A stretch of DNA of 60,440 nt, the filler included, from an uncultured virus (IMG/VR IMGVR_UViG_2124908030_000016) (taxonomy: Duplodnaviria > Heunggongvirae > Uroviricota > Caudoviricetes). It is 12 parts of one record of this genome, joined end to end, with 100 filler letters (N's around TTAATTAATTAA, not from the genome) between each part and the next. Parts side by side here need not be neighbours in the genome. Positions count along the whole stretch, not along the records: positions 48,782 to 57,804 come from IMGVR_UViG_2124908030_000016; 11 more parts are not named here. One strand, written 5' to 3'. Each line of letters starts with the position of its first letter. The stretch's first letter is position 1. The notes under the pieces are model-generated. The model was given only the letters and a program-made list of their open reading frames with translations, did not search any database and had not been told where the DNA came from. Shown here one piece after another: positions 12,977 through 58,011 of the stretch. A program made the position numbers and the translations under genes.

Positions 12977-13116
12977 GCTTGACCCCCAGGAATGCGAACA
13001 CGAGTGCAAACAGCACCAGTGCAATTGCGGACAGCATTAGCGCTCGTCCCTCTCGTCGGAGTCGACCCAGTATCTGAAATAGACGACAAATCGTTCTGGC
13101 AGCACTGCAATGGTCA

Positions 13117-14346: not shown

Positions 14347-15094
14347 AGTCTTCGTCTTTGATACGGAGGTCGATACCGTGGTGGATCAGCTGGTGTTCGT
14401 CCTCGGGAACGACGGAGATGTTCTCGGGTCGGTTGTCGATCTCGAGGTGGTTCTCGTGATGCACGTTGGTATCGTCGCTGAAGACCTCGGAGACCGAGTT
14501 CTCCTCGAGAGCACGGAGTTGGTGGAGACGGAGGGAACACTCTTCTATCGAGAACTTGGCGTATCCGTGAGCTCGGTCGTACTCGTAGTAGAGAGATGGA
14601 GCTGGTGTCGAGGATGCTATCTCCGCTGGGTAGGGGTCGTCTTTCACGATCCCGTGGGTGGAGCACGCTCGACTGATTCCACTTTGATCTGTTTCGGTTA
14701 GCAGTGAGACCTTTGCTTGTGTGAGATCGTCTGTAATGTACTTCCGACGAAGCCAGGCTGCACTGTGGTGAAGTTTCTGGACACCATATTCGTGGTGTTC
14801 GTCCGAGAGGCCGAACTCGTCACACCAGTTGTCGATTGTATCGGTGGAGACACCACAACACTCGGCGATTTCGGTTTTCTCGACTCCGTCGTCGATGTAT
14901 ATCTCGCGAAGCCACGGCTCCTGTTGGTGGCGAACCGTGAGATCGTATTCTCGACACCAACGACCGATGGTCGACCCGGTGACCCCACACAGTCGGCCAA
15001 TTTCCCTCTGAGTGAGATTCTCTGCAACGTACTTCTCACGGAGCCATTGTTTGCGACGATATCGAACGTCGGCCGAAGACTCGGTTTTCGACAC
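14347..15094 (-). CDS. HNH homing endonuclease with three N-terminal HTH repeats
   Basis: Three WLR.kY repeats; VHHENHLEIDNRPENI....HQLIH HNH motif. Confidence 0.85.
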
Positions 15095-40809: not shown

Positions 40810-43800
40810 GTGGACCTCACCAGCGGAGTCCAGACCCACGACCGTAAGCCGTTGTTGCTGACGAACGTCAGCTACGAGATCGAAAGTAGTGGGCATCGGA
40901 CAGATATGCCCATAATCCGGCTCCAAGTTCGCGACGGTGAGGGTCAAGCAGAGGAACTCGTCGTTGAGGGGTTTCGTCCATACTTTGGAATTCCTCACCA
41001 CAACGTCGTCGAGGACCCGACTGGTGTCCTGAACGACCGTCGCGTCCTCGGTGTCGAGTGTGACTGTTCACCATCGGTCTGGAGTGATACACTCGATGTC
41101 GACGAATCAACGACACCACAAGATGTTGCCGACCTCCTCACGACGGAGACCTCTGCTGATGTCTACCACGCAGTTTCTGATCCGGGTCCTGCTGACCCGG
41201 TGTTGTCCACGACGATCGATGGAGAGCCCCTCGCTCGTGTGATCGCGACTGTCCCGGATGATGTCGGTGGATACGGTGGTACTGGTGCGCTTCGCGATCA
41301 CTTCGACTCCACGTTCGAGGCAGACATCCCGTTCACCCGACGGTTTCTGATCTCGTCGGAGATCTACCGTGGACTGACGGCGCCGAAAGGGGCAGACCGC
41401 GTCGTCTACGAGAACTGGCACGGGGAATCAGATGGCTACGACAGGCAACAGGATATCGCCCCCGCAGAGCCTCCAGCTGTGGATGCCAGGGTCTGTATCT
41501 TCGACATCGAGGTCGTCGTCGGTGACCGAATTCCCGACCCTGTTCGAGCACGGAATGCCATCAACGCCATCAGTGCGTACGACAGTTACGACGAGCAGTA
41601 CCGTGTCTGGGGGCTCGCACACAACGACTGGCTTGGAAAACAGGATGAGGTTCGCAAAGCAGTCTCAAAGCGTGTCCGTGACGAACACGGCCTGGACGTC
41701 GAGGTATCACTCTACACCGAGGAAGGAACAATGCTCGATGAGTTTAACGAGTACGTCGTCGAGCGTGACTTCGATATCATCACCGGCTGGAACTCCGATG
41801 GGTTCGATATCCCGTACATCATTCAGCGGTCGTACAATCAACAGGCACTCCAGATCAAAGGCTGGAGCAAACACGGTAAGCCGGGAGTCTGGAAAGAAGA
41901 GTACAACGGCAGGGAGAAAACCGCCTACGCTGTCCAGAACCGATGCACGCTCGACCTTCTGAGTGCGTACCGGAAGACCCAGTTTCGCGAGCTCGACTCG
42001 TACCGCCTCGACGACGTCGCTGAAGCCGAACTCGGTGAGGGTAAAGACGACCTCAGTCCCGACGAGATGAATCAGGTCTGGCGTGAGGACCCAGCTCGGT
42101 TCTTCGTCTACAACGCACGCGACGTCCAGGCTACGGTGGGGATCGAACGGAACGCAGGCCTGGTCAGCCTCTACGAGGATCTCAGGCAGGTTACCGGCGC
42201 GATGTACGAGACNNNNNNNNNNNNNNNNNNNNNNNNNNNNNNNNNNNNNNNNNNNNTTAATTAATTAANNNNNNNNNNNNNNNNNNNNNNNNNNNNNNNN
42301 NNNNNNNNNNNNCGCAAAACGTACGCTCTCGACCCGGACACCTACAGAGAGCAACGTGACAGTCTCGATGAGAAGGTAGAGACCGCCACTGTCTCAAACG
42401 GAGAGGAATATGCCCGTGTTCCTGCCAGCTACAACGGTGACGACATACTACAGCTGATCGGATGGTACGTCACTGAAGGAAACTGCGTTGGGGGTAACAC
42501 TGGATCGGAGATCACACGGATCACACAGTGTTACGACGATGGGCGAAGTGAGATCACATCTCTTCTCGATCGGATGGGGGTCCCGTATTCTGTCTCGTGC
42601 GAGAAGACCGTGAACATCTCCAGCTCGGCACTCAGGACGTTCTTTACCGAGTACTGTGGTGACGGCTCTGACAACAAACGACTTCCTGAGTTCGTTTTCG
42701 ACGTCTCTGAACGTCAGAAAGAACTACTCTTCCGGACTCTGATCAAGGGAGATGGAGAGTGGCGTGAACAGGCTAAGAACTACACCACGAACAGTGATGA
42801 GCTCAGAGACGACGTTCTTCGGCTCGCTACAGAACTGGGATACAATCCCCGGTACGAGTCTCACGTCGGTAGGTCCTGGAGAATTATGTTCTCGGACCAG
42901 AGCAACACACTCCGTGGTTCCTCCCACGCATCCCGTGTCGATGGAGAGGGTGTCTACTGTGTCACAGTCGAAGACAACAACACACTACTCGCAGGCAGAA
43001 ACGGAAAGTTCCAGTTCGTCGGGAACTCAGTATACGGTGTCCTCGGCGACTCTGACTCGGCTGGCGGGAAGGGCTTCCGGCTGTACAACCGGCGTATAGC
43101 AGAAGGCATCACACTCGCTGGCCGAATGGAGATCACGCACACGGCAGAGGAACTCACCTCTTACATCCGTGAGAACCACGACGAAGATGCCTACATCGTC
43201 GGCGGTGACACAGACAGCGCCACTACGAGTATCCCAAATGCGCCCGATCTGATGACGGCCAGAGAGTGGGCTGAGGACGGCGTTGAGCACGTCGAGGCAA
43301 CCTACGACCAGTTCGTCCAGGACCGGTTCGGATTCGACGCAGACGACGAGCACCGGCTTGCAGTCGACCTCGAGACGCTGGCGTCGGACCTGTTCTATAT
43401 GACGTCGGACACGGACGGCGTCTGGCAAGCCGGCACGGGGACGCCGTTCCTCGACGACAAAGAAGGGGTCAAGAAACGCTATGCACAGCTGGTGGTCTGG
43501 GACGAAGACGACGGCTGGATCGACACCGAGGATCCAGACGATGAGGAGGGATACGAGAACGCAGCGGAAGACCCAGAGGATCGCTCGGAGCTGAAGTACC
43601 AGTCCGACATCAGCTACGAGGACTTCACCTCTGGCGTGATGGCCCCGTGGGGTGAGCCAGGCGACTCCGTCTCAATCACGGGCTTCGAGTACGTCAGGTC
43701 GGACTCGGCGATCGTCACTCGAGAGGCACAGGAGCGGATCCTCACCGACCTCCTACTCGCAACAGATCCCCGCAAACGGATCGAGCCGTACCTCCGCGAG

Positions 43801-44331
43801 CTGGTCGACGACATCGAGAGTGGTGAGTACCCACTCGAGAAGATCGCTCGGCCGAGGGGGTCGTCGAAGTCCCTGGACGACTACGGTTGGAAGGAGTTCG
43901 ACGAGCTCAACGAAGCCGACCAGACCGAAGAGGCTGAAGCACACGGTGGTGCCTACACGTCGACGCCTGCGCCGTCGTATCGTGGTGCCAAATACGCAGA
44001 CGACCACTTCGACTGGGAAGATCTCGGAGAAGGCTCGAAGCCCTACCGTGTCTACATCGAGCGTGTACGTGGTGACGAGTATCCGAGTGTCTACCAGTAC
44101 GAGACGTATCCTAAAGATGACCGACCCGACCCACCCGAGATTGACCGGGAGGTCAACGCGGTCGCGATGGAACGCCCCGACCGCCTTCCCGACCAGTTCA
44201 TCGTCAATCACAGCCTGATGATCGAGAAAGAACTGAAAGACACGGTGGCGTCTATCCTGGTAACAGCGGGGATGGAATACGACGACCTGATCGCTGACGG
44301 ACGACAGACAGGACTCGGGCAGTTCGTCTGA
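40810..44331 (+). CDS. polB: Family B DNA polymerase (split by the linker at 42257; contains an intein)
   Basis: FEADIPF, FDIE, GWNSDGFDIPY, SYRLDDVA, YNARDV; N|SVYG, GGDTDS, KKRYA, GFEYVRSD; C-terminal PIP-like QTGLGQF. Confidence 0.93.
42313..43026 (+). mobile_element. LAGLIDADG-containing intein in PolB (motif B site)
   Basis: LIGWYVTEG, LIKGDG, VYCVTVEDNNTLLAGRNGKFQFVGN|S. Confidence 0.9.
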
Positions 44332-44373
44332 CGTACGCAACATACAAACCTTTGGTTAACGAGTACCAGCTGT

Positions 44374-44926
44374 ATGAGGCGCGACGATGGAAGCGACGAC
44401 GACGGGGGACTCTTGGGAGAACTCGGTGGACTTGTGCTAAAGATACTCCGACACGGAGCAACCGTTCTTGCCGGTGGTGGGAAGGTCATCGTGGCTATTA
44501 GCGTCGTGACTGCGATGGTCGGCGGACTGGTCGGTGTACAGACCGTCGATCCGGGAGAGCGCGGTGTCTACGTCCGTAACGGAGAGGTGATGGGAACGGT
44601 CACAAACGGGGTTCATCCGACGATCCCGCTGATCGACCGCGTCCGTGTGTTCAATATGCGGACGACCACGTTTTCCACCACACAAGACGCACTTACGAAT
44701 GACAACATCAATGTCAATGTTTCAGTCACTGTACGGTGGGACATCCGAGATGGAGAACTCGAGCGGGTCTACCGCGATCAGGCAGTCAACCAGGAACAGC
44801 TGATCGAGCTCGCCGTCCGCGACGCAGTAACGAGTGGCATCAAGAATCGCGAAAGTTCGACTCTGACGAGCTGTCGAGCGAGGCGTACAGAGACGCCGTC
44901 CTCAGTCGATCTCTGAGCTGTTCACG
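44374..44926 (+). CDS. SPFH / band-7 / prohibitin membrane protein, truncated, frameshift near 44845
   Basis: TM segment followed by VDPGERGV...G.H..IP.IDRV...TND...V.V.V.VRW. Confidence 0.88.
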
Positions 44927-45059
44927 NNNNNNNNNNNNNNNNNNNNNNNNNNNNNNNNNNNNNNNNNNNNTTAATTAATTAANNNNNNNNNNNNNNNNNN
45001 NNNNNNNNNNNNNNNNNNNNNNNNNNCATCGCCGGAGTGAGAAAGTCGGCTTCGTCGAG

Positions 45060-45272
45060 ATGTCTCAGAGCGCACTCGAACGTGCGATCGAGACAACGGA
45101 CTTCGCAGAAGAGACAGACCCCGGTGATGGCGACACTGTGTGGACTGTCGGTGGGTTCGAGATCAAGCAGAGTGATGCACTCAATGCGGACATCGTACGC
45201 ATCCACAGTGCAGAGACGGATTCGTTCGTGATCGCTGATGGCAACGGCGCTGAGTTCGTCAATATCGGGTAG
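45060..45272 (+). CDS. Hypothetical protein
   Basis: Acidic 70-aa ORF. Confidence 0.5.
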   Translation: MSQSALERAIETTDFAEETDPGDGDTVWTVGGFEIKQSDALNADIVRIHSAETDSFVIADGNGAEFVNIG

Positions 45273-45511
45273 CAGTTGAGTTCGCGAACACGGAGTCTTT
45301 CCTCGATGGGCTGTTCGACACCAGGCGCTCGACGCGCGCGTCGCGGTGCGCGACTGGGCGCTCGCTGTTGACTTTCACCACGACTACAACCGTCTGAGTC
45401 ACTATTTTCGAACACCCAGACCCAGAGTAGTCCCCGGAGTAGTCCACCGACGAAATGAATGATTACAACTCGGGCCGATAAGATTATGTGTGTCTATCGC
45501 CACCACTCTGT

Positions 45512-45739
45512 GTGAAGGACGAGCAAGAGTATCCGTTCCCAGAGGACATCGACGACTTAGAGCAGTCCGGTCGGCCGTGGGTCACTGCGATCGGGTCTAT
45601 ACTTGGAGCCAGTATTGCCGTGATCTACGTTCTGATGCCTGTGATCATCTTCGCGTCTTACACGCTCGGGTGGTTCGGATTCGAGTCGACGACAACTCTT
45701 CTGCTCACAACTATCGGCGTGTACTGTGTCCTGGAATAG
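45512..45739 (+). CDS. Small membrane protein
   Basis: Two TM segments; promoter-motif variant at 45488. Confidence 0.55.
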   Translation: MKDEQEYPFPEDIDDLEQSGRPWVTAIGSILGASIAVIYVLMPVIIFASYTLGWFGFESTTTLLLTTIGVYCVLE

Positions 45740-45757
45740 AATGGACGCTGGGTATTG

Positions 45758-46093
45758 ATGTCGTTCGTCAGGTTCCCAGCAGTCGACATCGAGATTGACA
45801 GTTCTCTCACTGCGTCGATTCTGTTTTCTCTTCCGTCAGGTGAGTTCCAGACCAGAAACCACACGCTCGAGGATCAGCTTACGTTCGGGAGCGGTCTGGG
45901 TTGTGCTGTACAGTCCGACGCCCAAGCCTGGGTCGACGCCGTCCAAGAAACGGCCCCGGAAGGAGAGGACTATCCGTTCGTCGTACAGGTCGACCCTGGT
46001 ACTGATGAGCTCGGTGATATCCGAACACGGAACTATCACGAAGACGTCAAACAGAGCCTGTTCTACACTCTGTACGGATATTCTGTAAAATAG
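45758..46093 (+). CDS. Hypothetical protein
   Basis: Acidic ORF. Confidence 0.55.
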   Translation: MSFVRFPAVDIEIDSSLTASILFSLPSGEFQTRNHTLEDQLTFGSGLGCAVQSDAQAWVDAVQETAPEGEDYPFVVQVDPGTDELGDIRTRNYHEDVKQSLFYTLYGYSVK

Positions 46094-46133
46094 TATAGTT
46101 ACTTATGAGCTAAATCCAGATCCGGCTCTGTGT

Positions 46134-46273
46134 GGACGGAGTGCCGACTGGTCGAGGTAGTCCTGGTAATCGCAGGATGTCGCACACGGAAGGGGGAAGC
46201 TCACGAGGACCAAGATTGGGAAATCGTCGGGTGCCCTGGAACTGTCTTTCGGGTTCGAATCCCGATCCGTCCG
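46134..46273 (+). ncRNA. tRNA-like RNA (140 nt) with an expanded, aberrant central region
   Basis: Acceptor GGACGGA/TCCGTCC; T-arm TCGGG-TTCGAAT-CCCGA; D-loop-like CTGGTC. Confidence 0.7.
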
Positions 46274-46372
46274 TGACCATACCAAAACTTACTTAATTCT
46301 TAAGCTATTGGTTGTGGTGTGAGCGTCGAAGGTTAACCAGGTGCGGGTGGACCCCGCCTGGTTAGATACAAG

Positions 46373-46645
46373 ATGGACGACAACGACGACAAGAAGTACG
46401 TCGACCTCGAGTTCAAGAACACACCGACGACCCGCGAGGAGGCGGTCTTCGGCCCAGACGAAGAGGACACGCTGTTCGATGCCTACCAGATGCTCCGGTG
46501 GGTCGGTGTGCCGAAGCGAAAGCTCGGGGCGATGGCAGTCACAATCGAGCTGATGACGATCTACGACCGCGACGACCTGGAGCAGTACTTCGAGCGTGTG
46601 GCCACCGCATCCCCCACGTTCGAGGACCGGCTCGAAGACGAGTAG
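46373..46645 (+). CDS. Hypothetical protein
   Basis: Acidic 90-aa ORF between the tRNA-like elements. Confidence 0.65.
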   Translation: MDDNDDKKYVDLEFKNTPTTREEAVFGPDEEDTLFDAYQMLRWVGVPKRKLGAMAVTIELMTIYDRDDLEQYFERVATASPTFEDRLEDE

Positions 46646-46666
46646 CGGGCCCAAACGGCGCTCTTT

Positions 46667-46739
46667 GTCGACCAAGTCACAGTGGCGTGACACCCTGCTG
46701 TTGACAGGGACGTGCGAGGTTCGATCCCTCGGGTCGACG
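46667..46739 (+). tRNA. tRNA-Asn(GTT)
   Basis: GTCGACC/GGTCGAC acceptor; GTCA/TGAC D-stem; CCCTG-CTGTTGA-CAGGG; CGAGG-TTCGATC-CCTCG. Confidence 0.92.
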
Positions 46740-46740
46740 T

Positions 46741-46842
46741 ACGACCGAAAGCCTGTCTTCACCACACGGGCGATATCTGGTGGTACCAGGTGCTGTAGGT
46801 GGGGGAAATGCCCCCTGTTAGGTTCGAATCCCAACCGGTCGT
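46741..46842 (+). ncRNA. Atypical tRNA-like cloverleaf
   Basis: ACGACCG/CGGTCGT; GCCTGT/ACGGGC; ATCTGG-TGGTA-CCAGGT; GGGGG/CCCCC arm; GGTTCGAATCC. Confidence 0.6.
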
Positions 46843-46846
46843 CTCT

Positions 46847-46987
46847 GTGGAGAGTCCCTGCATAGACGAGTGTGCATTGGCTGAGGGTGTCTGCATCGGC
46901 TGTGGACGGACGAAGAAGGAAGTCACGTCCTGGGCAACGATGACAGAAGAACAGCAACAGCGCGTTCTTGAGCGCCTCTCTGGCTGA
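46847..46987 (+). CDS. DUF1289 family Cys-rich protein
   Basis: SPCIDEC.....CIGCGRT..E...W..M. Confidence 0.85.
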   Translation: MESPCIDECALAEGVCIGCGRTKKEVTSWATMTEEQQQRVLERLSG

Positions 46988-47072
46988 ACTCCTCTGTATC
47001 TCGGTGCCAACAGTCTTAGGTGTGTCTATCACATACAACGCAGCGTGATCGAAGACCACGAGTGGATCGACA

Positions 47073-47261
47073 ATGGTTGAAGAAACTGGGGTCGACGAAC
47101 CGTATAATATCACCGTGGAGATGGGAGAGCTACTCGTTGATATCACAGGTGCGGACTCAGAGTGGGTCAGCGAAGAGTTCAATCGAGTCTGGGCTGAACG
47201 ACTCGTGGAAGCAGATAAGATGTCGGACGAAGAGCGCAAGCAGTTAGGCCTATATCAATGA
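47073..47261 (+). CDS. Hypothetical protein
   Basis: Acidic ORF in an operon. Confidence 0.6.
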   Translation: MVEETGVDEPYNITVEMGELLVDITGADSEWVSEEFNRVWAERLVEADKMSDEERKQLGLYQ

Positions 47262-47575
47262 CTGACGGCAACGTCTTAAACTCGCGAGCGAACAACCTCG
47301 CCCCTGGAGACGAGGTCTTCGTCAACGAACTCTCGAGACCTCTGGAGGTGACCGGACGACATCGTCAACGAGTCGATATGAGGACACGATCCCGCGACGA
47401 TTACCACTATATCGTCGAGCTCGAGGGGTTCGGCACAGAGTATCATCTGCTCTGGGATCACGGCAGCGGGGTCGCCCCGATGCTCTATCGCAAGTCCGAA
47501 TGGACAGAACGCGACGACGTCTACCTGTTCGACTACACCGGTGGTGAGCGAGTCGGGACGCTCGAAGTAAAGTGA
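47258..47575 (+). CDS. Hypothetical protein
   Basis: 4-nt overlaps with both neighbours. Confidence 0.65.
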   Translation: MTDGNVLNSRANNLAPGDEVFVNELSRPLEVTGRHRQRVDMRTRSRDDYHYIVELEGFGTEYHLLWDHGSGVAPMLYRKSEWTERDDVYLFDYTGGERVGTLEVK

Positions 47576-48474
47576 GTTCACCCTCGTTCGAGCTTTCAGG
47601 ATTGTGGAGCGATGACGACACGCTTCGTCTTGCCGATCACTTCTGTACCCAGACTCACAAGGACCGGCGGGAGGAAGCACGAGACCTCTACCTACACGCT
47701 CATTCTCACGCGCTCGGCCGGGACGATGTCGTGAAGGCACTGCTTCTGGCAGAGGTAAAACTGAGGACGAAGCCCCCCGGCATCGAGAAAGTGATCCTCG
47801 ATACTGAGGGGATCTCGAGTGTGATCCAACAGACGATTCTCGCGTACATCGACGAGATCACCATCGACGGCGTCTTCGAGGAATGGGATGTCGACGATAC
47901 TCGACATCGCCTGGAGCTTCAGCTGACTGAGATGCCTCCGGTCTCTATGGCTGAAGAAACTCCGTATAAGTCCACGTACGAGACCTACAGCGTTGACATC
48001 CAGAAGTACTACTGTCAGATCAAGTTGTTTGGTCTGATGACCCCCGCATCGGAGCCAGCCGGCGCGCTGTTCACGCACTTCTGTGAGACAGCTGGTCGAA
48101 CGTATCTCGATGCGCTCGAATCCAGCATCGAGCGTACAGATGGTGTCTCGCTCACGGAGCCACTCGAGGCCCCAGATGCGATGGACCAGCTGCTGAACTT
48201 CGGCCACCACTCAGGGGCGTTCTACACCGGCTCAGACGAGTTCTCGACAGATTACGAGTGGGACGTCAACCACTGTCCGTACATCCCCGAGGACGCCACG
48301 TTCGTTGTCGCAGACGGTGGCTGTACGGATGCCGTCAGGACCGCGTACGAGTTCCGTGATGGGTCCGGGACGTGGCCGAGATCGCACGAGGTAGATATGG
48401 GTGTACTAACGGAGCGAGCTCAGTTCGCCGACAATCGATGTGTTGTTCCAGTGAATAATGCCAATCTGGACTGA
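47572..48474 (+). CDS. Hypothetical protein (300 aa)
   Basis: Acidic; translationally coupled on both sides. Confidence 0.7.
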   Translation: MSSPSFELSGLWSDDDTLRLADHFCTQTHKDRREEARDLYLHAHSHALGRDDVVKALLLAEVKLRTKPPGIEKVILDTEGISSVIQQTILAYIDEITIDGVFEEWDVDDTRHRLELQLTEMPPVSMAEETPYKSTYETYSVDIQKYYCQIKLFGLMTPASEPAGALFTHFCETAGRTYLDALESSIERTDGVSLTEPLEAPDAMDQLLNFGHHSGAFYTGSDEFSTDYEWDVNHCPYIPEDATFVVADGGCTDAVRTAYEFRDGSGTWPRSHEVDMGVLTERAQFADNRCVVPVNNANLD

Positions 48475-48668
48475 TGTCTGGGGACTCGCGGTCGCAAATC
48501 TCACGCTACTCCAGTTCTATCTCATTCCGCCGGTGCGAGTACGGTGCGTCTGATGAATTCGAACCACAGTGTCTATGTGACGCCACCGAGGTCTACGAGA
48601 TCCTCGGCGACCCGATGTACCTCTGTGCCGAGCACTACAACGAGGTCACACACGAGCGAAAGAATTAG
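48474..48668 (+). CDS. Small zinc-binding protein
   Basis: C..., C.C and LCAEH motifs. Confidence 0.5.
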   Translation: MSGDSRSQISRYSSSISFRRCEYGASDEFEPQCLCDATEVYEILGDPMYLCAEHYNEVTHERKN

Positions 48669-49151
48669 GTGCGTCATATACNNNNNNNNNNNNNNNNNNN
48701 NNNNNNNNNNNNNNNNNNNNNNNNNTTAATTAATTAANNNNNNNNNNNNNNNNNNNNNNNNNNNNNNNNNNNNNNNNNNNNACCGTCGTCGACACTACCG
48801 GTGGGCCGAGGATACGCCAGACGACGACGAAGACGACCCTACGTCGTTACTCCCGAAGACGACAACGACGACAACGACGTCAACAACGACCCAGATCGCC
48901 AGGTCGGCGCCGTCTACGATGTTACCTACGAGTACAACGTGACGTTCCGCGACCGGATCGTGGCGGGCACCGAGGATGGGGCGAAGAGGCAGGCCAAAGA
49001 TCAGATCGAATTCGGAACTGCCGTCGGCGCACACAAAGTTCACACGAACGTCGATACCGTCGCGGAAATCTACGAAAGCGACGACCGCGCTGACGAGCTG
49101 AAGTAGTACCGAACAATAGTGTTTAGTGCGTCTGGTGAATACAGACGTACG

Positions 49152-49898
49152 ATGACAGACGATCCTCGAAAGGCGTCGTCGATGAACGCGTGGTGGCCGA
49201 AGGTCGAGGGACTCGATGTCCTGACGCCGGCAACGCAGGTCATCCCACTTCGGTCCTACGATGACGCAACCGAGATCTACGAGGGGGTCCCGATGTCCAT
49301 TGTCGATCTAGACACTGTCGCAGACGCAATCGATGCGGTCGGTGGGCCCCCGGCATTCCTGCGAACCGATCAGAGCAGCGCCAAACACAAGATGGCGTCT
49401 GCCTCGCGAGTGACGTCGACGGATCCTGAGGAGCTCGAAGACTCCGTGCTCAATCTCCTTCGACACAACGAGCTGAGAGGGTTCGCTGGGCTCCCGTGGA
49501 CGACGCTGTACGTCCGGGAATGGCTCGACCTCAAACACGAGTTCACTGCGTTCGAGGAAACGCCCATCGCGAGTGAGGTACGCTTCTTCATTCACGACGG
49601 ACTCGTCCACGGTTTCGGGTTCTACTGGCCCCAAGAGGCGATCGCAGAGCACCCAGCAACTGGCAACATCCGTGGTGACTGGCGGGTTCTCCTCGACCAG
49701 GTCCGGACACACGCCGAGAGTGAGGCAGTAAACACCGTCTGGCCGATGGCTCGCGAGGTCGCTGATGCCTTCGATGGGTACTGGTCGGTCGACTTCGCCG
49801 AAACCGAGGACGGTGACTGGTACCTGATCGATATGGCTCTCGGCCAGGTCTCCTGGCATCCCGAGGGTGTCGAACGTCCCGAAGAGTTCACGGAATGA
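49152..49898 (+). CDS. ATP-grasp protein (R2K/Cdc123-like)
   Basis: FLRTDQSSAKH, YVREWL, EVRFFI, WSVDFA...DWYLID. Confidence 0.75.
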   Translation: MTDDPRKASSMNAWWPKVEGLDVLTPATQVIPLRSYDDATEIYEGVPMSIVDLDTVADAIDAVGGPPAFLRTDQSSAKHKMASASRVTSTDPEELEDSVLNLLRHNELRGFAGLPWTTLYVREWLDLKHEFTAFEETPIASEVRFFIHDGLVHGFGFYWPQEAIAEHPATGNIRGDWRVLLDQVRTHAESEAVNTVWPMAREVADAFDGYWSVDFAETEDGDWYLIDMALGQVSWHPEGVERPEEFTE

Positions 49899-50077
49899 GG
49901 GGGTACACCAGCCTCAGTAATGTCGTCCTCTGTATGGAGTGCTCCCACATCTCGGTGTACTCCCCGAACGGGAGCCCGTACCGCTGTGAGGCCTGTGAGG
50001 CCGGCTCGAAGTCCCTCGTTCCTGGTGAGACGCTTCGCGACGTCTACTGCGAGCATACCAGCGACTGGGGTGACTAA
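49895..50077 (+). CDS. Small zinc-ribbon protein
   Basis: CMEC...CEAC. Confidence 0.55.
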   Translation: MRGYTSLSNVVLCMECSHISVYSPNGSPYRCEACEAGSKSLVPGETLRDVYCEHTSDWGD

Positions 50078-50079
50078 CG

Positions 50080-50445
50080 ATGGTCGACGAAATCCCAGAT
50101 GGTGAGCCAGACCCCGACGACTTCGCTGGCAAGATCGTACACTTCTCTGAGTCGACGTGGGATCGCATCGACAACCATTACGCGAGTGCTCGGGCCGAAG
50201 AACGAGCTGATGAGTTCGCCTCGGCCACTCGTGAATCGTATCTCCAGGGGTTCACCGACGCCTGTCAAGAAGCAAATACTCTCCGTGTGCTTCGAAGCTG
50301 GGCCGAAGAACAGCGTGATCAGGCTCGGGAAATGTACGACGAGACTGGAGAGCACGAAGATCTCGTCCGGTATCACACATACGTCGAGCTGCTGATCAAG
50401 ATCGCCGAGATGGGCTGTCTCCCCCGTGATGATGATGATCCCTGA
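50080..50445 (+). CDS. Hypothetical protein
   Basis: Acidic 121-aa ORF. Confidence 0.6.
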   Translation: MVDEIPDGEPDPDDFAGKIVHFSESTWDRIDNHYASARAEERADEFASATRESYLQGFTDACQEANTLRVLRSWAEEQRDQAREMYDETGEHEDLVRYHTYVELLIKIAEMGCLPRDDDDP

Positions 50446-50753
50446 TCTCGGCCCGTTCGACCATCACCCAACGCGCCATCACCTCAGAGAGATCGGATCC
50501 CTTTCCTGGACTGGAATTCAGTGTCTCGTCCGTGGCGAGCTCGACGAGGCACTGTGGGCATTCGCTATGGCCCGTGGACACATCAGGACGCTACGTGACT
50601 GACCGCTAGTCGATAGTCTTTAGTACGTTGGTCTGATACGGTCAGTCGCCGTCGTCACCGTGTGTAGTCTGTCGCACGCTCCATTCGACGGCAACCCCCT
50701 TCTGTCGCAATGTTCGACCTTGAGCTAGGCAACCAGCTCCGTGAGGTGCTCGA

Positions 50754-51296
50754 GTGACCGATCGGTCGAAGCGACTGAACAAGTCCCTCGACGATTTGTT
50801 CGGTCCCGGTGACGAGACCTGTCGGGTCTGTGAAGACGACCTGGTCAACTATCGGTGGAGCTACTGCTCGCCTCGGTGTCGACATATTGCCTACGGTGTT
50901 CAGTCGATGTTTCTCTGGGATACAGTCCGCTCGAAGGTCCTCGAGCGTGATGACCACACCTGCCAGCGCTGTGGGCTCTCTGAAGAGATGTGGTGGCGGG
51001 CGTATCATCAGGTCCAGGAGCTGATCAACGACCGAGCTCGGCCTGTTAAGAAGGCCGACGGCGTCGACGCCTGGCGCGAACGAAAGCGAGAGCTCAGAGA
51101 GGCCTACGACGTCGACTCACCGAAAGGTGGGCTTCACATCGATCACATCGAGCCCCTTTCTGAGGAAGGTCATCCACTGGACACAGCAAACCTCCAGACG
51201 CTGTGTAAGTACTGTCACTATGAAAAGACGCACGAAGACGCAGAGCTCGAACAGACCGAGCGAATCCCAATCAGCGAGTTCGTCGACTGGGCCTGA
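50754..51296 (+). CDS. HNH endonuclease
   Basis: VLERDDHTCQRCG...IDHIEPLSEEG...NLQTLCKYCH. Confidence 0.9.
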   Translation: MTDRSKRLNKSLDDLFGPGDETCRVCEDDLVNYRWSYCSPRCRHIAYGVQSMFLWDTVRSKVLERDDHTCQRCGLSEEMWWRAYHQVQELINDRARPVKKADGVDAWRERKRELREAYDVDSPKGGLHIDHIEPLSEEGHPLDTANLQTLCKYCHYEKTHEDAELEQTERIPISEFVDWA

Positions 51297-51398
51297 GCGC
51301 GCTGATACCCTACTGCCGTGAACTTCGGCAACAACAGTGCCGACGTCGAGCCGTTACTCACAAAGATCGAAGAGGCATNNNNNNNNNNNNNNNNNNNN

Positions 51399-51834
51399 TC
51401 AGCAGGCCCTGGACGACTACCGCTGGTTCCGCCAGCAGTACCAGGATATCCAGGCCCAGCGTGAGATCATCGCGAACTCGTACGACGAGCGAGAGCGATT
51501 CTACGAGATCCACGGCAAGGATCCCTCGCAGTGGTCTCGGACGGCCGAGACCAGACACGGACGCATCGAACAGCGAATCACAGGCAACCAGAACCAGCTC
51601 GAAACGATGGTTGCGGATTACAATGCTCGCTCGCAGGACGCCACGAGCTCGGTGTTCAAGTGCAGCCTGCCTTATCAGGTGGATGAAAGATTCGCCGTGA
51701 CGGGCCCACCGGGAAGCGGACCAGCAGAACAGCCGGTGGACAAGACCATCGACGGGGAACCTGTCGAGGGCGAGCCCCCGTCTGCGGAACAGTGTGACGG
51801 CCTCCCAGAGGAAGTGCAGAGAGAAGCTCAGTAG
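51399..51834 (+). CDS. Phage protein partnering the downstream lipoprotein (5' end in gap)
   Basis: Y.WF.QQY.DI...ADYNARS...F...LP. Confidence 0.6.
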
Positions 51835-51839
51835 TAGCA

Positions 51840-52502
51840 ATGAAACGCAATACACTCCTCGTGATCGGACTCGCATCGCTCGTGCTCCTTGCTGGATGTG
51901 GTGGCGGACCTGATTCCAGCGGAGATGACCTCGCAGATGACACCGGTACTGAACTCAGTGGGACGGAACTCGGTGAGAGCTACAAGTACGAGATCAAGTT
52001 GACGGAGAAGAACCAGCAGAATCTCGTTCGGCAACAACCGCCGTTCGAGATGGAGAGTTCACTGGAGCGCAAGAACCTGATCGACCGTTACCAGTATCTA
52101 AACGACCAGAACAACGTCCACCACATCTATCTTCTCGGCAACGACGGCGCTGTCGTGAGCTACTACGTGGCTCAGGGCAAGGTTTCGAGTGTCAACTCGA
52201 AGCTGACCAACGACGAACAGATCGTAGCACGTCAAGACTGCCTGAGGACGACCAATAATGGGGGTGAGGGTGCCTGCTTCAAGACCGTCGAGAGCCCGCA
52301 GATGGACGGCTCCTACGGGACAAACGGTGATGGCATCTTCTTCTTCACGACACAGGGTATCTACGTCGAGACGAACCTGAAGTACGTCGTGGCAGAGGAG
52401 CCCCGTCAGATCCAGACCCAGCCAGTGCTCGTTCAACAGGTCGGTGACGGTCAGCAGAACAGCACCAGTATCAGCAGTGCCGGGGTCACTGCGTCGAGCT
52501 AG
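51840..52502 (+). CDS. Phage lipoprotein
   Basis: Lipobox LLAGC; SLERKNL, GKVSS.NS.LT, DGSYGTNGDGIFFFT. Confidence 0.8.
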   Translation: MKRNTLLVIGLASLVLLAGCGGGPDSSGDDLADDTGTELSGTELGESYKYEIKLTEKNQQNLVRQQPPFEMESSLERKNLIDRYQYLNDQNNVHHIYLLGNDGAVVSYYVAQGKVSSVNSKLTNDEQIVARQDCLRTTNNGGEGACFKTVESPQMDGSYGTNGDGIFFFTTQGIYVETNLKYVVAEEPRQIQTQPVLVQQVGDGQQNSTSISSAGVTASS

Positions 52503-52504
52503 CG

Positions 52505-52972
52505 ATGCTCGACCGCCGAACCTTCTACGTCGCAATCGGGAGTCTCGCTGTTGGAACGTTTGGCACGTCGGCGTGGTGGGTCGTGAACGAGGTCGACCCC
52601 AAGCCCGTGGAAGTCGAGCCATCGTCGACCAACGACGAGGTCCAGAGCGCAGCGGAGTTGTCTGGGGACTACCTACGTGCGCTCGAAGGAACAGTCCGAG
52701 ACCCTCGAGTCTACGTCGGAGACAAAGGGTCGATCCTCGCGACCTACCAGTCGCGCGCTGAGACGCCTGCAAGCGTCAAACAGCAGTTCCACGACCTGGT
52801 GGACCTGTACGTCGAGACTGCATCCGACGGGCACGAGCCACGGACACTGACGCTCCGAACGGCAGGACTACGGGCCATCGTTCCTGTGACTGCTCTGCGG
52901 GCCCATCTGTCCGGTGAGATCGACAGAAACGCACTTCACGAAACGGTCGCGATTTCGGATGTCGGTTCGTAG
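52505..52972 (+). CDS. Tat-signal / membrane-anchored protein
   Basis: MLDRRTFY followed by a hydrophobic stretch. Confidence 0.65.
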   Translation: MLDRRTFYVAIGSLAVGTFGTSAWWVVNEVDPKPVEVEPSSTNDEVQSAAELSGDYLRALEGTVRDPRVYVGDKGSILATYQSRAETPASVKQQFHDLVDLYVETASDGHEPRTLTLRTAGLRAIVPVTALRAHLSGEIDRNALHETVAISDVGS

Positions 52973-52976
52973 TTCA

Positions 52977-53024
52977 GTCATCCTGACTCTGGTGAGTATC
53001 GGGGTTCGATTCCCTGGGGTGACA
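52977..53024 (+). ncRNA. Anticodon-less tRNA-like element (t-element)
   Basis: GTCATCC-TG-ACTC(TGGT)GAGT-AT-CGGGG(TTCGATT)CCCTG-GGGTGAC-A. Confidence 0.75.
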
Positions 53025-53025
53025 T

Positions 53026-53334
53026 ATGGAGTACAGCGAATGCGATGGCCACTGTTTCGAGATGTACCCCAACAGCAAGTTGCTCAATGTCGAGGTCGGT
53101 CACAAACAGAGTGACGGAAGTATGACTGGTGTCGAGAAAGACGAACCAGTTAGCCAGGACTACTGTCCTGAATGTGCGAACACAGAATTCGGCATCGATG
53201 TCTCTGGGGCGACGAACTACGACACGAGCACCCCCATCGTCACTCGCCTGAGCTGGCTCACGCCAGACCTGGTCGTCGGGTTCGTCTTCGGGCTGATCGT
53301 GATGCTGATGTTCTGTTCGTTCTTTACGGTCTGA
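53026..53334 (+). CDS. Zinc-motif protein with a C-terminal TM segment
   Basis: CDGHC...YCPEC; hydrophobic tail. Confidence 0.6.
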   Translation: MEYSECDGHCFEMYPNSKLLNVEVGHKQSDGSMTGVEKDEPVSQDYCPECANTEFGIDVSGATNYDTSTPIVTRLSWLTPDLVVGFVFGLIVMLMFCSFFTV

Positions 53335-53395
53335 TAAACGGTCGACACGGATTCGTTACCGATAGACTTTCGTGCTTCAAAGAGTTAGATGTGCT

Positions 53396-53932
53396 ATGAT
53401 ACTTACAGATGGTGAGATTAGAGGGGCGCTCTCTATGGGCGATATCTCCATCGACCCGCTGAACGACGACCAGATCGGGCCTGCATCGGTCGACCTCAGA
53501 CTCGGAGATACCTTCGCTCAGTTCGACCCAGACGTCCAGGGGGCCATCATCGACAGTCGAAAGAACATCGAGCAGTTCACCGAGACGTTCCAGACTGGTG
53601 AATTGGTACTTGATCCAGACGAGTGTGTGCTTGGTACGACTGTCGAAACCGTCGGTCTGGGCGACCAGACGTTCGGGCAGGTCGAAGGGCGGTCGTCGAT
53701 CGGGCGACTTTTCGTCGAGGTTCACAAGACTGCCGGCGTCATCGATCCTGGGTTCACCGGTGAGATCACTCTGGAGATCCACAATGACTTGGACCATCCG
53801 GTGTCATTGTATTCGGGTCAGCGAGTGTGTCAGATAGTCTTGACTCGACTCAATAACCCGGTCGAGCAGCCGTACGATTCGAAGTACCAGGGGCAGACTG
53901 GCCCGACGCCATCGCGAATCGAGCAGGACTGA
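53396..53932 (+). CDS. dcd: dCTP deaminase
   Basis: PASVDLRLG, EGRSSIGRL, AGVIDPGFTGEITLE, KYQGQ. Confidence 0.96.
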   Translation: MILTDGEIRGALSMGDISIDPLNDDQIGPASVDLRLGDTFAQFDPDVQGAIIDSRKNIEQFTETFQTGELVLDPDECVLGTTVETVGLGDQTFGQVEGRSSIGRLFVEVHKTAGVIDPGFTGEITLEIHNDLDHPVSLYSGQRVCQIVLTRLNNPVEQPYDSKYQGQTGPTPSRIEQD

Positions 53933-53934
53933 CG

Positions 53935-54150
53935 GTGGAGTCCTCATCGAGGCATATCCTGCCTTCCGATCCTGACGACTTCGACGAAGCATACGAGACG
54001 TACATCAAAAACAAGCGTGTGTTCGACGAGATACTTGCCCTCGATACACGAGAGCCAGGTGATCAACGACGAGAGCGTCTGCGGGAGATCTGGGAGAATG
54101 GCAATCTGAAGTTCGTCGCAAACGTGGCGGTGATATCTCCGGATGATTGA
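53935..54150 (+). CDS. Hypothetical protein
   Basis: Follows dcd. Confidence 0.5.
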   Translation: MESSSRHILPSDPDDFDEAYETYIKNKRVFDEILALDTREPGDQRRERLREIWENGNLKFVANVAVISPDD

Positions 54151-54183
54151 TTCGACAGACAGTCCACGGGAGCAGCGGTCTTC

Positions 54184-54363
54184 GTGAGCAGTGACTCTGA
54201 CACCGAGCTGGTCAAAGAGGTCCTGTATTATCACGAGCCCTGTTCCATCGACGAGCTCGAGCACCGCCTCGACGAAGACAGTGATGCTGTTCGGCGTGCT
54301 CTGTCCGATCTCCTCGCTCGGGGGTGGGCAGAGCACACCACTCGTGGGTACCGACTGCTGTGA
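54184..54363 (+). CDS. Small winged-helix DNA-binding protein (not in ORF track)
   Basis: MSSDSDTELVKEVLYYHEPCSIDELEHRLDEDSDAVRRALSDLLARGWAEHTTRGYRLL. Confidence 0.65.
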   Translation: MSSDSDTELVKEVLYYHEPCSIDELEHRLDEDSDAVRRALSDLLARGWAEHTTRGYRLL

Positions 54364-55112
54364 GACGATTTGTCATTAGCGACATTACGACAACTGGCCA
54401 GCTCTGAGGCCGGTGTAACAGAGCACTTCCAGTCGACCAGCTAATCCGTATCTTGGAACAGATTGTCGAGACCTTTTTCTGGCATTGCGTCTTCGGACTG
54501 GAGAACCTGGCTGAAGATACACAACCCCAACTCCTCTGGCACCGCTCGGATGACCTTATAGAATGACGAAACCGATAGCTCGACTGTCACCGCCGGCTCA
54601 GTCTCTGTTTCCGCCTCTGATTTTGCTGTTTGTNNNNNNNNNNNNNNNNNNNNNNNNNNNNNNNNNNNNNNNNNNNNNNNNNNNNNNNNNNNNNNNNNNN
54701 NNNNNNNNNNNNNNNNNNNNNNNNNNNNNNNNNNNNNNNNNNNNNNNNNNNNNNNNNNNNNNNNNNNNNNNNNNNNNNNNNNNNNNNNNNNNNNNNNNNN
54801 NNNNNNNNNNNNNNNNNNNNNNNNNNNNNNNNNNNNNNNNNNNNNNNNNNNNNNNNNNNNNNNNNNNNNNNNNNNNNNNNNNNNNNNNNTGCTGATTTCG
54901 TCGTCACGTTTGTCGTACACAGCCTGCATATCAGCTGTTGTTTGGCTCATTTCCACAACGAACTCCTCTATCTGTCGATATAAAACATCATAGTTGTATT
55001 CTGTGTGATGAAAACAGTGCATCTACCGTCTACTGGATTCGACAGAGGACTTGTATAAGCGCTAGTACACAGGCTCGAAAGTTTTTCGTGCGTCGGTCAC
55101 ATACAAAAAGTC

Positions 55113-56540
55113 GTGACAGTCGAGATAGACGGTGAGTACACAACGGCGAGGGTGATGGGTCTCGAGGAAGACGAAGTCGAGCAAAACGTCATCGACCAGA
55201 TTCAGACCTTCGTCGACGCGCCGGCGTTCCAAGAGTCGGTTCGAGTGATGCCAGATACGCACGTTGGAGCAGGGTGCGCGATCGGGTTCACGATGCCCCT
55301 GAACGAGCGTGTCGTCCCGAACGCGATCGGCGTTGACATCGGCTGTGGAATGGTCGCTGGAGAGATGGGAGTGATCGAGACTGACGACAAAGCTCTCGCG
55401 GAATACGACGAGGCTATCCGTGACACTGTTCCGACTGGACGTTCGGTGCGCTCGAACCCCGACTATCACATTGCTAATGGGTTCCCGTGGGAGAGCTGTG
55501 AAGAGAAGCTCGCGCAGTTCCGCGAGACCATCGGTGATCCTAACTGGTGGGACGAGCCCGACTGGTTCGACGGTTACGATATCGACTACCTGAAAGAGCT
55601 ATGTGGTCGTGTCGAGTACGACCTCAATCGTGTCATCAGCTCGCTCGGGACGCTCGGTGGAGGTAATCACTTCATCGAACTCGGGCAGACTGATGACGAG
55701 CGTGTTTGGGCAGTGATTCACTCTGGGTCGAGGGGAATCGGCTTCTCGATTGCCGAGTACTGGCAGGAGAACGCAACAGAGCGTCGAACAGCTGACTGGA
55801 TACGGTCCGAACTTCGTGACGGACTCGAGCGCTACGTGGTTCCCAGTCTGGACATCGACGATGGTGAACTGGTTCAGTGGTTCCAGGGTGGGCAGGGACA
55901 GAGCTACATCGACTCAGAGGCTATCAAAAGCGCTGTCACCGACAACTACCTCATCGGAATCATCCACGAACTCATCCGCGAGGCACACCCCCAAGAGCGC
56001 CCTGACAACGAGGCACTGGACTATCTTGAGCGTGAAGAAGCAGTCGGCTACTACATCGATATGGTTTTCGCTCAGACCTATGCCGATGAGAGTCGTCGGC
56101 TGATGCTCCGCGAGGTCTGTGACGCAGTCGACAGTCTTCCGGGTACTGTGATCAGTTCCACTCATAATTTCATCGACTTTGACGACGGGGTGATGCGCAA
56201 GGGTGCCTGTCGTTCTCGTGAAGATGAGTGGTTCGTTCTGCCGTTCAATATGGCAGACGGGACCTACCTCTGTCGGGGAACCGGAGCCTCTGACTGGAAT
56301 CACTCGGCTCCCCACGGTGCTGGTCGGGTGATGTCCCGAACGCAGGCGTTCGACGAGCTCGACCTCGCTCAAATGAAGGCAGAGATGACCGACGTGTTCT
56401 CGACCAGTGTCGTTCAGGAGACGCTGGACGAGGCGCCACAGGCATACAAGTCAGCCGAGCTGATCGCGAACGCCATCGAGGGGACAGCCACGGTCGAAGA
56501 ACACCTCGATCCCGTACTCTCGATAAAGGCACTCGAATAG
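55113..56540 (+). CDS. rtcB: RtcB RNA ligase
   Basis: MPDTH.G.G, GVDIGCG, GTLGGGNHFIE, IHSGSRG, HN, RKGA, SAPHGAGR, DEAP.AYK. Confidence 0.97.
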   Translation: MTVEIDGEYTTARVMGLEEDEVEQNVIDQIQTFVDAPAFQESVRVMPDTHVGAGCAIGFTMPLNERVVPNAIGVDIGCGMVAGEMGVIETDDKALAEYDEAIRDTVPTGRSVRSNPDYHIANGFPWESCEEKLAQFRETIGDPNWWDEPDWFDGYDIDYLKELCGRVEYDLNRVISSLGTLGGGNHFIELGQTDDERVWAVIHSGSRGIGFSIAEYWQENATERRTADWIRSELRDGLERYVVPSLDIDDGELVQWFQGGQGQSYIDSEAIKSAVTDNYLIGIIHELIREAHPQERPDNEALDYLEREEAVGYYIDMVFAQTYADESRRLMLREVCDAVDSLPGTVISSTHNFIDFDDGVMRKGACRSREDEWFVLPFNMADGTYLCRGTGASDWNHSAPHGAGRVMSRTQAFDELDLAQMKAEMTDVFSTSVVQETLDEAPQAYKSAELIANAIEGTATVEEHLDPVLSIKALE

Positions 56541-56559: not shown

Positions 56560-56635
56560 GCCAGCCGAGCGTGGGTCTGGTACACGCGCTTCCTTTGTAA
56601 GGAAGAGTTCTCGGGTTCGAATCCTGAGGCTGGCT
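56560..56635 (+). tRNA. tRNA-Thr(TGT)
   Basis: GCCAGCC/GGCTGGC; GCGT/ACGC; CTTCC-TTTGTAA-GGAAG; TCGGG-TTCGAAT-CCTGA. Confidence 0.93.
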
Positions 56636-56837: not shown

Positions 56838-57556
56838 GCGGGTGGAGCACCATCACGCTCGAGCCGAACGCCGACTCCGAGGGCCCTGACGAATACTACG
56901 GGCGTCGGAGCCTCGAAGCAGATCTCCTCGAAGAGCTGAACGAGCGTGAGGTCTACGGCACGGTCGTCAGCCACCAGCGGGGTGCCGTCGCTGAGATCGG
57001 TGGCTACCGCGACTGGAGTGAAGACATCTCGATCCTCGAGAGTCTCGGCGAACGCTGGGAGCGAGCCGTCGTCATTCAGGCCAACGACACCTCGGATGTC
57101 GGCGATGCCAGGTACTTCGAGCACGCTCAAGAGGGCTGGGTCAGCTACGACAGCGGTGAGGTCGCGTGCCTCAACAGCTTCGAGGAGAACGAACTCGTTC
57201 ACGGAAGACCTGTCGGGTCGCTGGCTGCTAGCCAGATGCAGGTCCAGCACGGTATTCCGTGTCTCGCTTCGATAGACACGACCAAACTCCGATTTCGAAA
57301 GACAACTGACATCAAACAGAAGTCTCTCTCAGAGCGTGGACGTCAGGACGACCTCCTGGACAACGACTCCACTGTCGAGAACACCGACACGGATGAGATG
57401 CTCGAGCAAGTCGTTCGAGAACTCGCAGACGACGAAGACCTCTCGACGGCAGTACAGCTAGCTGTTGGCATCTCTGGAAAGTCGTACAGTGTCATCAAAA
57501 CGCTGGTCGATGATGACGAGATCGAGCTCGGCCAGAGTTCGGATGGTGGTGTCTGA
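56834..57556 (+). CDS. Hypothetical protein
   Basis: Acidic 240-aa ORF coupled to the ligase gene. Confidence 0.65.
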   Translation: MSGWSTITLEPNADSEGPDEYYGRRSLEADLLEELNEREVYGTVVSHQRGAVAEIGGYRDWSEDISILESLGERWERAVVIQANDTSDVGDARYFEHAQEGWVSYDSGEVACLNSFEENELVHGRPVGSLAASQMQVQHGIPCLASIDTTKLRFRKTTDIKQKSLSERGRQDDLLDNDSTVENTDTDEMLEQVVRELADDEDLSTAVQLAVGISGKSYSVIKTLVDDDEIELGQSSDGGV

Positions 57557-57804
57557 TGGCGTTCAAAAAGTACCCGAAGATTCGTCGACCGGGCCACCCC
57601 GAAACGAGTGGCCTCCTGGCCGAGCCCGACGACGAACTCGTGATCACCGAGAAACACGACGGGAGTAATTTTCGGTTCTGTCGTGACGAAGACAACATCC
57701 GGTTCGGGAGTCGGAACTGCGACCTCGGAATAAACCTCGAGGAGATCGGCGGACAGTTCGAGGCTGTTTCGGACCACATCAGCAACCGGACGACGTACGA
57801 GGAC
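57556..57804 (+). CDS. ATP-dependent RNA ligase (Rnl2-like), 3' truncated
   Basis: KYPKI, TEKHDGSN (motif I), FGSRN. Confidence 0.82.
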
Positions 57805-58011
57805 NNNNNNNNNNNNNNNNNNNNNNNNNNNNNNNNNNNNNNNNNNNNTTAATTAATTAANNNNNNNNNNNNNNNNNNNNNNNNNNNNNNNNNNNNNNNN
57901 NNNNGTGTATAGCGCACTTACCTATCTTCAGGTCGAGGGTGAGATCGACATCTCTGTCAACGATACCATCGCAACGCGATAGACCTAAATGCGTCACTCA
58001 CATACGGATGT

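Follow-up and report, generated by a model that had tools for sequence, protein, structure and literature searches.

An anticodon-less tRNA-like element between two protein genes of a novel haloarchaeal tailed virus as a possible signal for transcript processing

Introduction

According to the accessible portions of the published work, both RNase P and tRNase Z cleave the tRNA-like t-elements of Haloferax in vivo (PMC4326828, PMC4946936). At the t-element located before the 5S rRNA, these two enzymes make the ends of the neighbouring RNA (Hoelzle et al. 2008, 2012, as cited in PMC4326828, PMC4946936 and PMC3296008), and the 5S rRNA's 5' end is generated by tRNase Z at a tRNA-like structure (PMC3296008). 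Concerning plant mitochondria, the available text of PMC1920247 describes t-elements that define the ends of mRNAs. Their ends coincide with mRNA 5' and 3' ends, and cleavage by RNase P and RNase Z has been either inferred or shown.

With respect to the enzymes themselves, excerpts of PMC7479834 report that archaeal RNase Z accepts pre-tRNAs without the anticodon arm and cuts them just after the discriminator, and that an acceptor stem and a mature 5' end are required for a cut at this point. A literature search, with most subscription journals outside its range, returned no paper on the punctuation of archaeal virus transcripts by tRNAs or tRNA-like elements.

Here, we describe a 48-nt element found in a stretch of 60,440 nucleotides, filler included, from an uncultured virus of the Caudoviricetes (IMG/VR IMGVR_UViG_2124908030_000016). 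This whole stretch is called the window in the text, and all positions without another name refer to it.

Genome context

The window belongs to a new haloarchaeal-type tailed virus. Its RtcB protein shares 46% identity with the HCTV-16 protein and 44% with its HGTV-1 equivalent, and the gene content also comprises PolB with a LAGLIDADG insert, an HNH endonuclease, dCTP deaminase, an RNA ligase fragment, Hjc, QueC, YhhQ, DpdA, ThyX, ribonucleotide reductase and Dam. Two of these genes are near the element:

55113-56540: RtcB
57556-57852: RNA ligase fragment

Genes for QueC, a transporter of the YhhQ type and a DpdA-like protein lie at 9710-11030 and 17587-18534, on the minus strand in both cases. 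This gene set suggests that the viral DNA may carry a 7-deazaguanine modification, as annotated in HCTV-16.

The window is a scaffold with 32 runs of N (for example, at 42213-42312, 48682-48781, 29512-30307 and 54634-54889). Eleven linkers of 100 bp each are made of 44 N, TTAATTAATTAA and another 44 N, and they bring stop codons in the six frames. The other runs are eight of 20 N, one of 796 N and one of 256 N. One linker splits PolB, the two halves of which are in order, and the ORFs that cross N runs (such as 51337-51834 and 54441-55022) are unreliable. The element is located in unbroken sequence that extends from 51399 to 54633.

Regarding public sequencing data, three DNA runs from one hypersaline-lake study contain parts of the stretch, and no RNA sequencing run with it is listed. 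A Logan contig from a public DNA run spans 52967-53892 with 0 differences, although it may come from the same sample as the window and is hence not independent. The Logan contigs placed on the stretch present no variant in the element and leave 52625-52966 without coverage.

Anatomy and fold of the element

The element, at 52977-53024 on the plus strand, can be read from the sequence as a tRNA without its anticodon arm. Its parts are the following:

52977-52983 (+): acceptor 5' strand, GTCATCC, from sequence and fold
52984 (+): T at the U8 position, followed by G9 at 52985, from sequence
52986-52997 (+): D-like hairpin of 4 bp, with ACTC (52986-52989), a TGGT (UGGU) loop and GAGT (52994-52997)
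52998-52999 (+): linker A, T, the site of the missing anticodon arm
53000-53016 (+): T arm of 5 bp with one G-U, with CGGGG (53000-53004), a TTCGATT loop and CCCTG (53012-53016)
53003-53013 (+): tRNA consensus of the T arm, GGTTCGATTCC, from sequence
53017-53023 (+): acceptor 3' strand, GGGTGAC, from sequence
53024 (+): discriminator A, followed by T 53025 and ATG 53026

The two acceptor strands form seven pairs, one of them G-U. All of the 16 base pairs of the element are intact and its T loop is the consensus one. The MFE fold of a 49-nt stretch has exactly the predicted shape (-20 kcal/mol, z = -1.93, with 7 of 200 shuffles equally good), which is also kept in both the MFE and the centroid folds of a 211-nt context.

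In comparison with a canonical tRNA, the element presents the 7-bp acceptor stem, the discriminator, the 5-bp T stem, the TTCRANY loop and the G53-C61 pair, whereas the cloverleaf and the 7-nt anticodon loop are missing, with only A-T separating the T stem from the D-like hairpin. The canonical D loop has 7-11 nt and contains G18 and G19. In the element, a 4-bp stem closes a UGGU loop that does contain a GG but, with 4 nt, is much smaller than usual, and with a loop of this size a normal tRNA elbow is not assured.

ARAGORN called no tRNA at 52977-53024, and the Rfam search of the element gave no tRNA match at E<=10. The sole Rfam match was mascRNA-menRNA (RF01684), with 17.4 bits and an E value of 0.98. 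As the gathering cut-off of this family is 42.5, the element is not a member of it. Nevertheless, mascRNA is a released tRNA-like RNA, and this weak likeness is a lead, and a lead only, to an explanation in which the product itself would matter. The 48-nt RNA, with CCA added, could sequester, as a decoy or sponge, a host enzyme of defence or modification that binds tRNA, or serve as a partner of the viral RtcB and RNA ligase repair genes, which are encoded close by. We consider this very improbable, given an Rfam score far under the cut-off and a search that found neither conservation nor a partner. Moreover, lacking an anticodon loop, the element cannot imitate what anticodon nucleases usually target.

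The origin of the element was assessed by pattern counts. The T-arm 11-mer GGTTCGAWTCC has four exact copies in the window, all on the plus strand. A strict structural scan, in which 7/7 acceptor pairs, 5/5 T-stem pairs and a TTYRANY loop were required, gave four distinct elements in the window versus 0.29 expected per simulated window. When spans of 40-62 nt were considered, there was one match in the window, and 15 of the 400 simulated windows had at least one. The 11-mer count and the excess of the strict scan over the simulation indicate that the element is tRNA-derived, beyond what chance would give. Hence, 52977-53024 is a tRNA-derived element without anticodon arm in a novel halovirus. 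A relaxed scan for degenerate t-elements ahead of start codons returned 232 noisy matches with no other convincing one among them, and the covariance model made from the single sequence of the element found the element itself in the window at 81.5 bits, the next best match being at 12.7.

Two other identities were rejected. An att (integration) site is discarded because both acceptor strands are present and no cellular tRNA with the same 3' half was found, as well as because no integrase was seen among the scanned ORFs. A terminator is discarded because there is no T run 3' of the element.

The gene junction

The element is flanked by two ORFs:

52505-52972 (+): ORF A, 155 aa, with an N-terminal hydrophobic stretch, orphan, stop codon TAG 52970-52972
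53026-53334 (+): ORF B, 102 aa, with two CxxC pairs and a C-terminal hydrophobic helix, orphan

The start of the element is 4 nt past the TAG of ORF A and its end is 1 nt ahead of the ATG of ORF B. The acceptor 3' strand contains a TGA (53020-53022) in the frame of ORF B, so this ORF cannot start before ATG 53026. Both the anatomy described in the initial annotation (7-bp acceptor stem, U8, 4-bp hairpin with a TGGT loop, TTCGATT T arm and no anticodon arm) and the snug position of the element between a stop and a start codon claimed there are borne out, the former by the sequence as well as by the MFE fold.

The GC content of ORF A by codon position is 0.67/0.47/0.71, and the pattern and acidity of both ORFs resemble those of the known genes of the window. 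No relatives were found for them. ORF A retrieved itself only in a search of 5.8 billion proteins, the homologue search with ORF B gave no protein but itself, and neither tblastn of both ORFs nor a DNA search with 51800-54000 had a match among phages. IMG/VR scans with the element pattern, ORF A, ORF B and the dCTP deaminase returned nothing close, apart from one 35%-identical match in a 912-kb contig. The pattern made of the T arm and acceptor of the element had 0 matches in IMG/VR, in 185,579 species (one genome each) and in JGI metagenomes. RtcB as a lone query had no match in IMG/VR, and a metagenome scan with the Hjc-like protein of the window gave no relative.

ORF A, the element and ORF B belong to a row of plus-strand genes at 51840-53932, where the element fills a gap of 53 nt and the other gaps are 5, 2 and 37 nt. 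Inspection by eye of the 170 nt upstream of the element revealed no AT-rich TATA-like hexamer. The close packing of these genes on one strand, with no obvious promoter, suggests that the element may be co-transcribed with its neighbours.

The junction holds one more feature:

53016-53022 (+): SD look-alike GGGGTGA, 3 nt ahead of ATG 53026, overlapping the acceptor 3' strand

Due to this look-alike in the acceptor 3' strand, the fold might mask the start of ORF B and couple its translation to that of ORF A. The acceptor stem, which adjoins the AUG of ORF B, would hide the GGGGUGA, and a ribosome stopping at TAG 52970-52972 would open it, so that ORF B would be translated only after ORF A. The layout is the one expected for such a mechanism, as the heptamer is within the stem and the TAG is 4 nt ahead of the 5' strand. 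The duplex of GGGGTGA with the anti-SD (-10.4 kcal/mol) is among the strongest of 27 gene starts, for an anti-SD motif that was not taken from this host. An identical heptamer is located 6 nt ahead of ATG 50080, two of the eight copies in the window are directly before starts, and the stem is stable in the 211-nt context. However, GGGGTGA appears at chance frequency (8 copies versus 7.85 expected in the window) and the spacing after GGUGA is just 3 nt. Furthermore, a plain hairpin would suffice for masking, so this mechanism leaves the consensus T arm, the U8 and the discriminator geometry unexplained. We regard it as rather improbable.

A candidate processing signal

The reading that we put forward, with a confidence somewhat short of even, is that the element is a t-element, at which cuts by RNase P and tRNase Z would give a leaderless ORF B message. 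It would represent a tRNA gene minus the anticodon arm that retains what the end-processing enzymes read, namely the acceptor stem, the T arm and a short D-like hairpin. The element would be transcribed within the plus-strand gene row described above. The host RNase P would then cut at 52976/52977, leaving an ORF A message that ends 4 nt past its stop codon, and the host tRNase Z would be expected to cut between 53024 and 53025, past the discriminator A, on the model of PMC7479834. The ORF B message would be left with U-AUG at its 5' end, effectively leaderless and presumably usable by haloarchaeal ribosomes, and a 48-nt tRNA-like RNA would be set free as a by-product.

The ends of the element match the gene borders on both sides, and the enzymatic plausibility claimed in the initial annotation is backed by the available portions of PMC4326828, PMC4946936 and PMC7479834. 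On the other hand, the cut by tRNase Z would discard the SD look-alike of ORF B, which argues against the processing reading.

The covariance-model scan of haloviruses that had been proposed as a check brought no support. When the complete records of HCTV-16, HCTV-5, HCTV-1, HGTV-1 and VOLN27B were scanned with the model of the element, no analogue was detected. The weak matches of the model at 33293-33344 of HGTV-1 and 45015-45063 of VOLN27B are plain hairpins and were rejected as analogues.

tRNA and start codon junctions in HGTV-1 and contig L079

In HGTV-1, a virus of Halogranum, ORFs are interspersed among the tRNAs of the cluster, on a single strand. The junctions between tRNAs and start codons were checked independently of the annotation in this virus (region 41500-52500) and in L079, an IMG/VR contig with 28 tRNAs (region 4183-14939), considering ORFs of at least 40 aa with an ATG within 5 nt of the tRNA end. 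An ATG-opened ORF of 69-150 aa is no more than 5 nt from the tRNA end in 5 of the 15 tRNA-to-non-tRNA junctions of HGTV-1, and the same pattern is shown by 4 of 16 junctions in L079. The control consisted of 118 tRNAs of RtcB-centred IMG/VR loci, and outside L079 an ATG-opened ORF at <=5 nt was present in 2 of 91.

The junctions of tRNA-Ala(agc), tRNA-Val(gac) and tRNA-Ile(gat) of HGTV-1 are A-T-ATG, identical to that of the element. Moreover, the junction tRNA-Arg/TT/ATG can be aligned without indels between HGTV-1 and L079, with differences in the T stem and the anticodon, and the 77-aa ORF that follows it is 62% identical from Met1 in both. Two details of HGTV-1 concern the annotation: CDS 56 is annotated with a TTG start, 12 nt past an in-frame ATG directly after tRNA-Val, and an unannotated ORF of 32 aa follows tRNA-Ile(gat).

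Regarding SD complementarity, the anti-SD duplexes are weak in eight of the nine tRNA-abutting ORFs tested in HGTV-1 and L079, with six values from -1.4 to -3.6 kcal/mol and two at -7.0 and -8.6 kcal/mol. ORF B is unlike most of them owing to its strong SD look-alike in the acceptor 3' strand. An RtcB gene that starts 10 nt past a tRNA carries GGAGGT, with an anti-SD duplex of -10.7 kcal/mol.

These junctions fit tRNase Z cuts past the discriminator that would leave leaderless messages. The punctuation claimed for the element in the initial annotation is partly supported: tRNAs of HGTV-1 and L079 do abut SD-less starts, which speaks for it indirectly, whereas the GGGGTGA look-alike favours another mechanism.

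A broader proposal, which we consider possible though doubtful, is that large haloarchaeal tailed viruses punctuate their polycistrons with tRNAs and stripped-down tRNAs, from which the host RNase P and tRNase Z would release leaderless mRNAs. The signature of this punctuation would be discriminator-U-AUG, and the element of the window would be a tRNA past decoding that is still punctuating. If true, mitochondrial tRNA punctuation would have a counterpart carried by a virus.

Should these cuts take place, an archaeal virus would set the exact 5' end of a message through the tRNA-trimming enzymes of its host, and the message would be leaderless without a promoter. This would constitute a new route to leaderless mRNAs and would explain why halovirus tRNA genes are wedged between protein genes. 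The element would also illustrate how a tRNA gene can shrink to a pure processing signal, and such a signal could be a compact transcript-cutting tool in Haloferax. The accessible text of a 2026 paper about the tRNAs of HGTV-1 (PMC13532342) contains no mention of leaderless, RNase P, processing or polycistronic. According to the same excerpts, HGTV-1 is a cultured virus whose host is now available, and its discriminator-T-ATG junctions make the idea directly testable.

Other tRNAs and tRNA-like elements

The window contains two tRNAs and two further tRNA-like elements, one of them ahead of an ORF with a known domain:

46667-46739 (+): tRNA-Asn (GUU), 21 nt past the stop codon of ORF 46373-46645
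56560-56635 (+): tRNA-Thr (UGU), 19 nt past the RtcB stop codon, Rfam tRNA score of 26.9 bits with a cut-off of 29
46741-46843 (+): second odd tRNA-like element, starting 1 nt after tRNA-Asn
46847-46987 (+): DUF1289 ORF, 46 aa, Pfam E value of 7.8e-17, domain from residue 3
46134-46273 (+): long tRNA-like element of about 139-140 nt

Both tRNAs score under the Rfam cut-off. No ORF is found directly after either of them, which counts against the processing reading. The element at 46741-46843 has a 7-bp acceptor stem, a 6-bp T stem with one mismatch and three inner hairpins, without a clear anticodon loop, and scores 21.3 bits (E value of 0.19) with the tRNA-Sec model. Its end (C 46843) is 3 nt ahead of GTG 46847, the likely start of the DUF1289 ORF, for which ATG 46808 and GTG 46799 are alternative in-frame starts. 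The element at 46134-46273 has a perfect 7-bp acceptor stem and a T arm, with about 70 extra nt past a hairpin with the loop GUAAUCG. It was called by neither ARAGORN nor Rfam and could be a tRNA that is degenerate or carries an intron.

Short tRNA-like elements (44-59 nt, with strict acceptor and T arm) were also observed in lower-GC RtcB-centred IMG/VR contigs:

9793-9836: contig L054, 44 nt, following a CCA-ending tRNA in an array
6409-6467: contig L110, 59 nt, with a D-like hairpin and without anticodon arm
6433-6491: contig L089, 59 nt, with a D-like hairpin and without anticodon arm
9387-9445: contig L121
20163-20220: contigs L120 and L123

In VOLN27B (L040), a tRNA-like gene of 72 nt at 56111-56182, on the minus strand, lies beside tRNA-Gly; its acceptor stem and T arm are well formed, whereas a normal anticodon arm is absent. 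This gene may be the counterpart of the tRNA-like attP gene of HF2 described in the available part of PMC8707807.

Such pieces bear on whether the element could be a decaying tRNA gene, which would have lost the anticodon arm by deletion and would have no selected role, being perhaps still cut out incidentally. The element is a singleton without relatives, and it shares the window with the aberrant tRNA-like genes at 46134-46273 and 46741-46843 and with two tRNAs under the Rfam cut-off. Truncated pieces of 44-59 nt are present in other viral contigs, one of them within a phage tRNA array, and tRNA pseudogenes have been reported in HGTV-1 in the accessible text of PMC13532342. Nevertheless, all the pairs of the element are intact, and two separate reductions, a D loop shortened to 4 nt and an anticodon arm removed cleanly, result in a compact structure with a precise fit from stop to start. 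Its A-T-ATG junction is also that of the working tRNA junctions of HGTV-1 and L079. Decay without a role is, in our opinion, unlikely, albeit with an appreciable chance.

Comparison with known systems

The Hafunaviridae carry a mini-tRNA module that resembles the element: it is anticodon-less and intergenic, has an acceptor and a T arm, and occurs in haloarchaeal tailed viruses. This module has 41-43 nt and was found in 41 records, including HF2 and VOLN27B, with two paralogous copies in VOLN27B and in HRTV-9. Copies with their context are the following, with others in L130-L133:

72697-72753: VOLN27B (L128), first copy
73798-73854: VOLN27B (L128), second copy, which precedes an unannotated ORF of about 43 aa
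4375-4415: HF2 (L129)

Among eight sequences of the module (six distinct), 98.6% of the cells pair and double-sided changes affect 6 of 12 pairs, mostly between the two paralogues, plus one in Serpecor1. The differences with the element are clear, as the module has a 6-bp acceptor stem, a 6-bp T stem, the loop TTCGACT and, where the element has its hairpin, an unpaired AGTGGCG linker. It is placed 30 nt ahead of the ATG, with a covarying hairpin and GGGTGA/GAGTGA (SD) between them, whereas the element is 1 nt ahead. The two architectures differ and are not alignable, so the element is not a Hafunaviridae module. The model of the element matched only the T arm of one copy in VOLN27B, at 14.9 bits.

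For HF2, the available part of PMC8707807 gives a primer-extension 5' end at nt 4384, which is inside the module at 4375-4415 and downstream of the 5' acceptor strand. Either the transcript from nt 4384 cannot form the stem, or nt 4384 is not the true start. A 5' end inside the module is a warning that modules of this kind should not all be taken for processing sites.

Concerning eukaryotic RNAs, mascRNA/MEN-beta (RF01684) is like the element in its tRNA-like fold with a reduced anticodon region. These are vertebrate nuclear RNAs that RNase P and RNase Z excise from a longer transcript.

The plant-mitochondrial t-elements (Forner et al. 2007, in the portions of PMC1920247 available) are also non-canonical tRNA-like structures and share the GGTTCRANYCC motif of the T arm. 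However, they are part of an organelle system, while the element belongs to an archaeal virus that would depend on host enzymes, with a start codon only 1 nt from the predicted cut.

The t-element of Haloferax volcanii is similar in being a tRNA-like fold of a haloarchaeal system, and the element of the window would likewise lie within a longer transcript and be read by RNase P and tRNase Z. The known Haloferax cases yield mature rRNA or have been engineered around crRNAs. The element of the window is viral, lies between two protein genes and would yield a leaderless mRNA.

Finally, the junctions of HGTV-1 and L079 present the same order as the element, with the discriminator, 1-5 nt (often a single T) and an ATG in a same-strand gene row. 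In those cases a complete tRNA with its anticodon is upstream and most ORFs are SD-less, whereas the element of the window lacks the anticodon arm and resembles an SD in its acceptor 3' strand.
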